From assembly GCF_003334785.1 (NCBI RefSeq), contig NZ_QOWV01000088.1: a DNA stretch of 351 bases; one strand, written 5' to 3'. This DNA is from Escherichia coli. Its GTDB lineage: Bacteria; Pseudomonadota; Gammaproteobacteria; Enterobacterales; Enterobacteriaceae. Under the pieces are notes generated by a model, which had not been told where the DNA came from, searched no databases, and worked only from the letters and a program-made list of their open reading frames with translations. The position numbers and the translations under genes were made by a program. Positions 1 through 351 of this stretch are shown one piece after another (position 1 is the stretch's first letter; the number at the start of each line of letters is the position of its first letter).

Positions 1-20
1 ATATTACGTAGCTCATTTTC
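1..20. repeat. Degenerate repeat remnant flanking the array on the C-terminal side of the minus-strand ORF
   Basis: Positions 1-20 match the last 20 bp of a unit at 10/20 positions (ctcat and tc shared). The encoded ENELRN corresponds residue-by-residue to DDEIKS of the repeat with conservative changes. Confidence 0.55.
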
Positions 21-351
21 CAGATAGCGTTTCAGCTCGAGGAGTTCGTGGTCATCGCCGAAACTGACGGTTTTCAGGCTCTTGATCTCATCGTCCAGAT
101 AGCGGTTCAGTTCCCGGAGCTCGTGGTCATCGCCGAAACTGACGGTTTTCAGACTCATGATCTCCTTGTCCAGATAGCGGTTCAGCTCGAGAAGCTCGTG
201 GTCATCGCCGAAACTGACGGTTTTCAGACTCATGATCTCCTTGTCCAGATAGCGGTTCAGTTCCCGGAGCTCGAGGTCATCGCCGAAACTGACGGTTTTC
301 AGACTCTTGATCTCATCGTCCAGATAGCGGTTCAGCTCGAGGTGTTCATAA
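1..351 (-). CDS. Partial CDS (internal fragment, both ends outside the window) encoding a protein built of 25-aa tandem repeats; function unknown
   Basis: Minus-strand frame with codons on + coordinates 3..350 is open for all 116 codons. Translation N->C: YEHLELNRYLDDEIKSLKTVSFGDDLELRELNRYLDKEIMSLKTVSFGDDHELLELNRYLDKEIMSLKTVSFGDDHELRELNRYLDDEIKSLKTVSFGDDHELLELKRYLENELRN. The other two minus frames hit TGA within the first 6 codons. Of 11 variable sites among the four complete units, 4 are synonymous in this frame (gaa/gag Glu twice, ctc/ctt Leu, agc/agt Ser) and 7 fall on its third codon position; none is purely synonymous in the antisense + frame. Codon choice is GC3-rich (ctg, cgc, aac, atc, acc, ggc, gac). 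The flanking segment ENELRN aligns to the repeat start DDEIKS with a conservative substitution at every position. Caveat: openness is partly a by-product of copying one stop-free unit, so the statistical weight is that of about 25-30 independent codons. Confidence 0.72.
21..95. repeat. Repeat unit 1 (block A = LLE type, block B = DEIK type; carries unit-specific variants at window positions 30, 45 and 78)
   Basis: Direct alignment to units 2-4. Encodes (minus strand) DDEIKSLKTVSFGDDHELLELKRYL. Confidence 0.9.
96..170. repeat. Repeat unit 2 (block A = LRE type, block B = KEIM type)
   Basis: Direct alignment. Encodes (minus strand) DKEIMSLKTVSFGDDHELRELNRYL. Confidence 0.9.
171..245. repeat. 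Repeat unit 3 (block A = LLE type, block B = KEIM type)
   Basis: Direct alignment. Encodes (minus strand) DKEIMSLKTVSFGDDHELLELNRYL. Differs from unit 2 only at window positions 186, 189, 190 and 192. Confidence 0.9.
246..320. repeat. Repeat unit 4 (block A = LRE type, block B = DEIK type; H->L variant at window position 274)
   Basis: Direct alignment. Encodes (minus strand) DDEIKSLKTVSFGDDLELRELNRYL. Confidence 0.9.
321..351. repeat. Partial, diverging repeat unit 5 at the window edge
   Basis: Identical to unit 3 for its first 21 bp (321-341), then diverges (ggtgttcataa). Relative to the consensus, the encoded junction reads YEHLE instead of DDHELLE, consistent with a 6-bp in-frame deletion plus substitutions. 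Confidence 0.8.

Follow-up and report, generated by a model that had tools for sequence, protein, structure and literature searches.

The window and its open frames

The stretch analyzed here (the window) is 351 nucleotides (nt) of Escherichia coli DNA from contig NZ_QOWV01000088.1 of assembly GCF_003334785.1. A single tandem array was found in it by Tandem Repeats Finder, at 12..342, with a period of 75, 4.4 copies, 89% matches and no indels. Six-frame translation gives two stop-free frames out of six, one on the minus strand (codons 350->3) and one antisense to it on the plus strand (12..350), and the two have a common codon register. The remaining four frames each contain a stop in each unit. 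It is very likely that the window lies inside a minus-strand gene for a repeat protein and that the plus-strand frame is a shadow of it, which is the best explanation overall. The features are listed below, where L001 is a related locus on a plasmid of E. coli ECOR 10.

3..350, minus strand: probable repeat-protein gene, internal 116 codons (YEHLELNRYLDDEIKSLK TVSFGDD...ELRN), from six-frame translation, identity to L001 and gene calls
12-86, 87-161, 162-236, 237-311 and, partial, 312-342, no strand: units of 75 base pairs (bp), or 25 codons, from Tandem Repeats Finder
1..44, minus strand: last, degenerate repeat and start of the C-terminal tail (..LELKRYLENELRN), from comparison with relatives
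343..351, minus strand: edge of the N-terminal non-repeat region (..YEH), where the first degenerate repeat starts, from alignment to L001 protein residues 50-57, SEDYEHLE
12..350, plus strand: shadow (antisense) open frame of 113 codons, very probably not a gene, from the codon list of the unit and from relatives
9..11, plus strand: TAG closing the plus frame, which on the coding strand is a silent CTT->CTA change (Leu) compared with all 12 relatives

The start and stop codons of the repeat-protein gene both lie outside the window. By comparison with L001, the gene would continue for 51 codons past position 351, and for about 4 codons and a stop past position 1. Its product in the window reads YEHLELNRYLDDEIKSLK and then TVSFGDDxELxELNRYLDxEIxSLK units; the 25-residue repeat has the consensus TVSFGDDHELRELNRYLDDEIKSLK, with near-identical units. 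The plus-strand product is repetitive, hydrophobic and acidic; its 113 residues include 1 Lys and 0 Arg, and an earlier note on this DNA had rightly described it as nearly lacking both. The same note had held that two stop-free antisense frames are present and that length cannot decide the strand, which six-frame translation bears out. The length of an open reading frame (ORF) does not discriminate between the strands here because the shadow ORF spans the whole array, and it does so because one stop-free 25-codon unit is repeated.

Relatives and flanking sequence

Four small plasmids in PLSDB, from E. coli and Klebsiella variicola, carry the array according to a megablast search. It is present in 1 of 5,426 complete E. 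coli genomes, and megablast found no match to the array in phage genomes. L001 is plasmid RCS83_pIII, a ColE1-type replicon of 5,912 bp with Rop and MOBP mobilization genes, and its array has 11.3 copies (3583..4431). Positions 41-351 of the window are identical to L001 4137-4447, which lies within a minus-strand ORF (3559..4599). When window 3-86 is compared with L001 3574-3657, the only differences are at 9, 18, 30, and 45. These are all third codon positions of the minus frame (chance about 0.012), two of them silent and two conservative (D>E and N>K), and in the plus frame all four alter the residue. At the C-terminal edge of the array, positions 2, 9, 18, 30, and 45 are private to the window compared with all 12 relatives (four A>T transversions and one C>T). 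An exact search for this private left end gave no match in Joint Genome Institute (JGI) metagenome contigs.

The array is annotated by RefSeq as a minus-strand coding sequence (CDS) in all four plasmids (4/4). A separate gene caller placed a minus-strand gene on ten further contigs, mostly of 346 residues and of 371 in L009. In all relatives the minus frame extends 64 codons past the array to an ATG and, at the other edge, stops after 7 more codons. The start context in the relatives is gagTAAgaAGGAGtatcatATG, with AGGAG as a strong ribosome-binding site before the ATG, and this ATG lies 13 nt past the stop of a co-oriented gene of the PIN_8 family. In the diverged relatives L021, L025, and L016, a long ORF is found solely on the strand that is co-oriented with PIN_8. 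The minus strand had been named as the coding strand in the earlier note, and this is upheld by the annotation, by the flanks of the relatives, by the diverged relatives, and by the third-position differences from L001. The note had named as the opposite outcome a start and stop for the plus frame in the flanks together with a nearby stop for the minus frame; the flanks of the relatives show the reverse.

The RefSeq start of the L001 repeat CDS is an internal ATG (4485), which gives 308 residues. There is an upstream ATG at 4599 with AGGAG 7 nt before it and 13 nt past the PIN_8 stop, and it adds an N-terminus, MDGRFMIKK.., that resembles the MN[DE].SFL.[KN]K of diverged relatives. Because ATG 4599 has AGGAG, the PIN_8 spacing, and a family-like N-terminus, the true L001 protein probably has 346 residues, with the RefSeq start placed 38 codons late. 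A scan of L001 for promoters and terminators was no better than shuffles, and there was no match in Rfam (best E-value, E=0.84).

Substitution pattern between units

Variable sites were counted in the register of the earlier note, with units at 21-95, 96-170, 171-245, and 246-320. There are 11 variable columns across the four units (21..320). Seven of these (30, 36, 39, 42, 45, 78, and 90) are at codon position 3 of the minus frame, three (40, 49, and 82) at position 2, and one (92) at position 1. The changes that are silent in the minus frame are GAG/GAA for Glu at 36/111/186/261, CTC/CTT for Leu at 42../192, GAA/GAG for Glu at 45, and AGC/AGT for Ser at 78. In the plus frame, 0 of the 11 sites is silent. 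The note had counted 11 sites, seven at the third position with four silent, and had found that each changes an amino acid in the plus frame, and these counts are reproduced exactly.

The site pattern was compared with 11 changes placed randomly on the unit in 200,000 rounds. Seven or more changes at codon position 3 of the minus frame had a probability of 0.027, four or more silent in minus combined with 0 silent in plus had one of 0.012, and four or more silent in minus alone had one of 0.16; these values are somewhat optimistic, since the sites are partly dependent (39/40 are in one codon, as are 90/92). The ratio of the proportions of nonsynonymous and synonymous differences (pN/pS) was calculated by the Nei-Gojobori method. 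Among the four window units, the minus frame gives 0.38 and the plus frame 3.76. The values become 0.37 and 1.07, respectively, when 20 distinct units from 14 related loci are pooled, and the variable columns of the pooled units are distributed 9:6:5 over minus codon positions 3, 2, and 1. The repeats are thus under purifying selection, in frame. A comparison of both frames of this kind had been proposed in the note, and it gives a low ratio in the minus frame and not in the plus frame. The pattern between units is real and points to the minus strand, and by itself it is only suggestive. The codon pattern was therefore right in direction as an identifier of the strand (0.38 against 3.76), but the within-window statistics alone are not conclusive. 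The window is a worked example of a strand that cannot be assigned from ORF length inside a tandem repeat and where the codon-position pattern, although right, needs support from the flanks.

Two other explanations of the array were considered. It could be non-coding plasmid DNA, made of iteron-like or structural repeats, with both frames arising by accident from a stop-free unit. The array is on small plasmids, its near-identical units are like recently amplified DNA, and its guanine plus cytosine (GC) content is 52.5% against 33% in the flanking cassette, all of which would suit such an origin. However, the length of the unit is divisible by 3, the reading frame is kept in the variants with 11, 12, and 4 units alike, and the ORF continues in phase into unique sequence that has an ATG and a ribosome-binding site. 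Diverged relatives retain an acidic repeat protein despite DNA that has been altered beyond recognition. In addition, the plasmids replicate by a ColE1-type system with Rop, in which iterons play no part. Plasmid iterons are repeats of about 17-22 bp beside a Rep-dependent origin and are under no reading-frame constraint, whereas the units of this array are 75 bp, always in frame, and inside an ORF with a pN/pS of 0.37, which also argues against non-coding DNA in general. This explanation is very improbable.

The other explanation concerns the plus frame. The plus frame is open because the sense unit of this lineage is without TTA, CTA, and TCA codons; Leu is encoded by CTG and CTC and Ser by AGT. 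In L021, there is a TCA in each unit and also a TTA and a CTA in the first unit, and the antisense frame is closed throughout. The antisense frame is broken in each unit of the diverged relatives L021, L025, and L016. In the relatives of the window, the plus frame is closed 3 codons beyond one array edge and there is no start outside the array, which leaves only in-array GTGs as candidate starts, preceded by GGAG at a distance of just 3 nt. In L001 the plus frame forms a GTG ORF of 287 codons (3619..4482). The note had reported that TAG at 9-11 closes the plus frame at the array edge, and this was found again. Like other shadow ORFs, the plus frame of the window is open through codon avoidance, has the wrong codon-position pattern, and is without an independent start. 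It differs from the usual ones in that tandem repetition stretches it to 113 codons here and to 287 in L001. That the plus strand is the coding one, with a hydrophobic, acidic repeat protein encoded at 12..350 and with the shadow in the minus frame, is already largely refuted and keeps hardly any probability: the frame is stop-free over the array in the window and in all close relatives, but 0/11 sites are silent in it, its pN/pS is 3.8 in the window and 1.07 pooled, its possible starts are poorly spaced in-array GTGs, its stop position is not conserved (the new TAG comes from a change that is silent on the minus strand), all units of the diverged relatives interrupt it, and no annotation and no gene caller has chosen it.

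The PIN_8 neighbor and the two-gene cassette

The gene upstream of the repeat gene encodes a protein of 409 residues that belongs to Pfam PIN_8 (PF18476, E=1.4e-41), with weaker matches to PIN_12/DUF4935. Residues D54, E92, D177, D221, D245, and D274 are among 13 invariant columns in 20 PIN_8 homologs, down to 20% identity, and these six acidic residues are consistent with an active PIN-type nuclease. The protein also matches phrog_9788, a phage family of unknown function (E=2.7e-45). It has no close solved structure. In PADLOC-DB 2.0 it matched 0 families, and the repeat protein had two weak matches, none passing per stretch. In the classification of the PIN superfamily, PIN_8 has an unknown function, and the related DUF4935 genes are described as usually monocistronic (Matelska et al., 2017, PMC5499597).

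In every relative with flanking sequence (L001, L005-L014, L020-L022, L024, L025, and L028), the repeat gene is found 12-13 nt downstream of PIN_8 and is co-oriented with it. The same arrangement, with a co-oriented gene starting after 12-13 nt, recurs behind PIN_8 genes of 56-74% identity. The hosts of these are metagenome Rep3-type plasmids (L021 and L022), small contigs (L024 and L025), a Proteus mirabilis plasmid contig (L020), and a chromosomal contig (L028). The downstream genes of these diverged cassettes encode a related N-terminus, MN[DE].SFL.[KN]K..LES, and acidic tandem repeats of 25-29 residues. Their units share little except a DD..L..LSR.LDDE-like core, and the unit of L021 is FDDIHKLSLSLIDESFNNERLNVHG, also 75 bp. 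The window product carries acidic in-frame 25-residue repeats with a DD..L..L(S/N)R.LDDE-like core, and the isoelectric point (pI) of the family is 4.5-4.8. The phmmer program links L001 with P0032, a related protein fragment, at 128 bits and L021 with L024 at 70 bits; no direct link was found between L001 and L021. Judged from these sequences, the plasmid clade of PIN_8 has a dedicated repeat partner that appears to diverge along with the nuclease.

In addition, 3 of 80 PIN_8 homologs from viral contigs, all three distant, have tandem repeats fused in frame at the C-terminus, with units that are unrelated in sequence:

L036, 3931..4283: fused repeats of 16-residue units
L042, 4076..4367: fused repeats of 19-residue units
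L088, 4022..4240: fused repeats of 12-residue units

It appears that PIN_8 nucleases join repeat modules repeatedly, because there is a partner gene in the plasmid clade and there are fused repeats in phage-borne homologs. The fused arrays of L036 and L088 also have long antisense or shifted shadow ORFs.

P0032 (49% identical, with 29-residue units) is found at contig ends (L015-L019, 1..442) in enterobacterial islands, with integrase, CbtA/CbeA, anti-restriction, and RadC genes adjoining. The N-terminal half of P0032 is also found downstream of a 74%-identical PIN_8 gene (L028, 2595..2807). The cassette is not confined to plasmids, because homologs of the P0032 type are present in genomic islands and on a chromosomal contig. 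The backbones that carry the cassette differ (L001, 1..3000, and L005) and include ColE1-like/MOBP, Rep3/MobA_MobL, and a 12.6-kb contig with a Tn3-family transposase. The varied backbones suggest that the cassette moves as a two-gene unit. The GC content within L001 is 52.5% for the array, 33.9% for the PIN_8 gene, and 32.9% for the non-repeat N-terminal part of the repeat gene. The array of L021 is 33% GC, matching its neighbors, and the GC-rich unit is that of the E. coli/Klebsiella lineage.

Character and predicted fold of the repeat protein

The repeat protein consists almost wholly of its 25-residue repeats and is very acidic, with a pI of 4.7 and 84 Asp+Glu against 52 Lys+Arg. No hydrophobic stretch or signal peptide was seen at the N-terminus by inspection of the sequence, and the protein is likely cytoplasmic. 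A phmmer search of 1.84 billion representatives returned one close fragment and one 49%-identical fragment (P0032), followed mostly by proteins with BspA-type leucine-rich-repeat (LRR) motifs. There were 80 matches at E<=0.001 (best 9.5e-23), and about 70 of these have BspA-type LRR motifs by eye; one of them, P0075, is assigned to LRR_5 by Pfam (E=2.4e-20). The unit LKTVSFGDDHEL aligns column for column with LRR_5 segments, L.SV.FG.NSQL, and the L and F are kept in at least 90% of rows. The real array reaches 95.7 bits, and none of 30 controls with permuted units exceeds 33.7 bits, in a control database picked from the real matches.

Structure prediction gave a similar picture. AlphaFold2 without an alignment gave a predicted local distance difference test (pLDDT) score of 51 and a beta strand (TVSF) each 25 residues. 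With an alignment of LRR_5 segments, the pLDDT was 62 and the predicted template modeling score (pTM) 0.66, again with a strand each 25 residues. The top 50 Foldseek matches for both models are LRR structures exclusively, including TLR13, CroV588, SDS22, and Lingo-1. From phmmer, the motif register, AlphaFold2, and Foldseek, the protein can be called LRR-like with moderate confidence and is not filed as an LRR_5 member. The repeats probably fold as an LRR-like beta solenoid.

Compared with BspA-type LRR proteins (Pfam LRR_5, PF13306), the repeat protein has the same 25-residue period and the same register of L..V.FG....L..(L/I)...(Y/F), and its predicted parallel beta-solenoid matches LRR structures alone. 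It differs in that the AF..C..L half-motif is replaced by an acidic LDDEI.S. Typical BspA proteins are huge surface proteins, whereas the repeat protein is small and strongly acidic, has near-identical units, and fails the LRR_5 profile.

Several points weigh against the repeat protein as an LRR-like partner of PIN_8. At E<=10, neither the window product (116 residues) nor the L001 protein (346 residues) matched any LRR family in Pfam, LRR_5 included. Summing of scores over repeats inflates the LRR similarity, and the same effect gives spurious PHROG and NCBIfam matches. Similarity to LRR_5 is lacking in the sister proteins L021, L024, and P0032 (<15 bits), and both AlphaFold2 models are of low confidence, the better one having been built on an LRR_5-rich alignment. 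The repeat protein is absent from a large protein collection by word-indexed search and exact look-ups. PIN_8 homologs at <=40% identity have no adjacent repeat-protein gene, so not every PIN_8 needs the partner. Finally, the operon context of the window is deduced from its DNA identity to the relatives.

No credible family was found for either window translation in Pfam, NCBIfam, PADLOC, PHROGs, or PDB sequence searches. The candidates that were rejected are NCBIfam NF047331, a phage head-tail joining protein (phage_HTJ; 47.7 bits against a cut-off of 33), and about 20 PHROG families, which are repeat-summed artefacts with no single stretch passing, and the designed repeat proteins 7rdr and 7rmy of the PDB, whose scores per repeat are about 5 bits. 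Repeat-summed scoring is a trap for automatic annotation, as the cut-off of 33 for NF047331 is exceeded (L001, 3562..4599). The strand assignment is ordinary and is already in RefSeq for the close relatives. The repeat gene family has no name and no Pfam model, and no literature on it was found beyond the PIN classification (PMC5499597). The cassette of PIN_8 plus repeat gene is undescribed, and its fixed pairing with an uncharacterized nuclease family is mildly interesting as a modest, testable lead.

Possible function of the cassette

On the small mobilizable plasmids of Enterobacteriaceae that carry the close relatives, the repeat gene is the second gene of a putative two-gene operon, after PIN_8. 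Because its ATG is 13 nt past the PIN_8 stop with AGGAG in between, its translation may be coupled to that of PIN_8. The PIN_8 nuclease is probably the binding target of the repeat protein, which would serve as its inhibitor or as its specificity or sensor subunit. A broader proposal can be offered tentatively: PIN_8 and the fast-evolving LRR-like protein may be an undescribed two-gene system that passes from one to another of small plasmids, genomic islands, and prophages. In this system a variable-number repeat module, separate or, in phage homologs, fused, would control or target the nuclease, as an addiction pair or as a minimal sensor-effector defense. PIN_8 is a large nuclease family of unknown function, and a conserved, co-diverging partner on tiny plasmids is a tractable two-gene handle on it.

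The first form that this could take is an addiction or immunity pair, where PIN_8 would be toxic and the acidic LRR-like protein would be its stoichiometric inhibitor, stabilizing the small plasmid. The genes are tightly spaced (13 nt) with a ribosome-binding site between them, and a partner as acidic as this one (pI 4.7, with 84 acidic and 52 basic residues) would be well matched to a surface that binds nucleic acid. The partner also diverges along with PIN_8, and the cassette is on small plasmids that need stabilization. The cassette is like VapBC in that both are plasmid-borne operons of two closely spaced genes, one of them for a PIN-fold nuclease whose acidic residues are conserved. However, VapBC has a small single-domain PIN toxin that is preceded by the gene of an antitoxin with a DNA-binding domain. 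The gene order and sizes of the cassette are unlike this; PIN_8 has 409 residues and comes first, and the partner is downstream, has 171-371 residues, and gave no domain in a Pfam search, including any DNA-binding antitoxin domain. Stand-alone PIN_8 genes without a partner argue against an obligatory antitoxin. The usually monocistronic DUF4935 genes and the listing of PIN_8 under unknown function (PMC5499597) also count against an addiction pair. In ribonuclease inhibitor-RNase A and barstar-barnase, an acidic protein (an LRR protein in the case of ribonuclease inhibitor) meets a nuclease, and the repeat protein could likewise mask one. This is a functional analogy only; there is no sequence relationship, and the binding in the cassette is putative. 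An addiction or immunity pair is possible but not probable.

The second form is a two-component defense against phages or mobile elements, where the variable repeat protein would be the sensor or specificity subunit that licenses PIN_8 on infection. LRR-like repeats are the usual architecture of innate-immune sensors, and the sequence and number of the repeats turn over quickly. Some islands that contain homologous cassettes and PIN_8 genes also carry genes for integrases, CbtA/CbeA, anti-restriction proteins, and KAP nucleoside triphosphatases (NTPases), and relatives of PIN_8 are common in prophage contigs. The cassette resembles Avs/bNACHT and NLR-like immune proteins in having a repeat module and a nuclease effector with fast-evolving repeats. 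It differs from them in that the sensor and the nuclease would be separate polypeptides and that it has no NTPase switch or other signaling module. Neither protein matches a PADLOC model, and no literature on such a system was found. A defense role of this kind is rather unlikely.

Copy number and breakage of the array

The array has 4.4 copies in the window, 11.3 in L001, and 12 units in L009. The window equals an L001-like gene minus exactly seven units (525 bp, in frame) with a few private point changes. From such comparisons, it appears that the number and sequence of the repeats change fast through unequal recombination. It is quite possible, though short of probable, that the 4.4-copy array is not a natural short allele and is instead an assembly collapse of an array with 11-12 copies. 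Exactly seven units are gone and the junction is within identical sequence, many short-read assemblies are broken or collapsed at the array, and the left end of the window is without a match in JGI metagenome contigs. However, unequal recombination yields the same product, L009 holds a genuine extra unit, and the four or five private point differences of the window indicate a distinct lineage.

A version of 96 residues with about one unit is also known (P0016). The array breaks assemblies; contigs L002, L003, L004, L007, L008, L013, and L014 terminate inside it. The K. variicola FDAARGOS_627 record 'unnamed3' is linear and has both of its ends inside the array. In E. coli FDAARGOS_1248, unnamed5 (3,816 bp) and unnamed6 (2,099 bp) add up to 5,915 bp and look like one plasmid that was split within the array.

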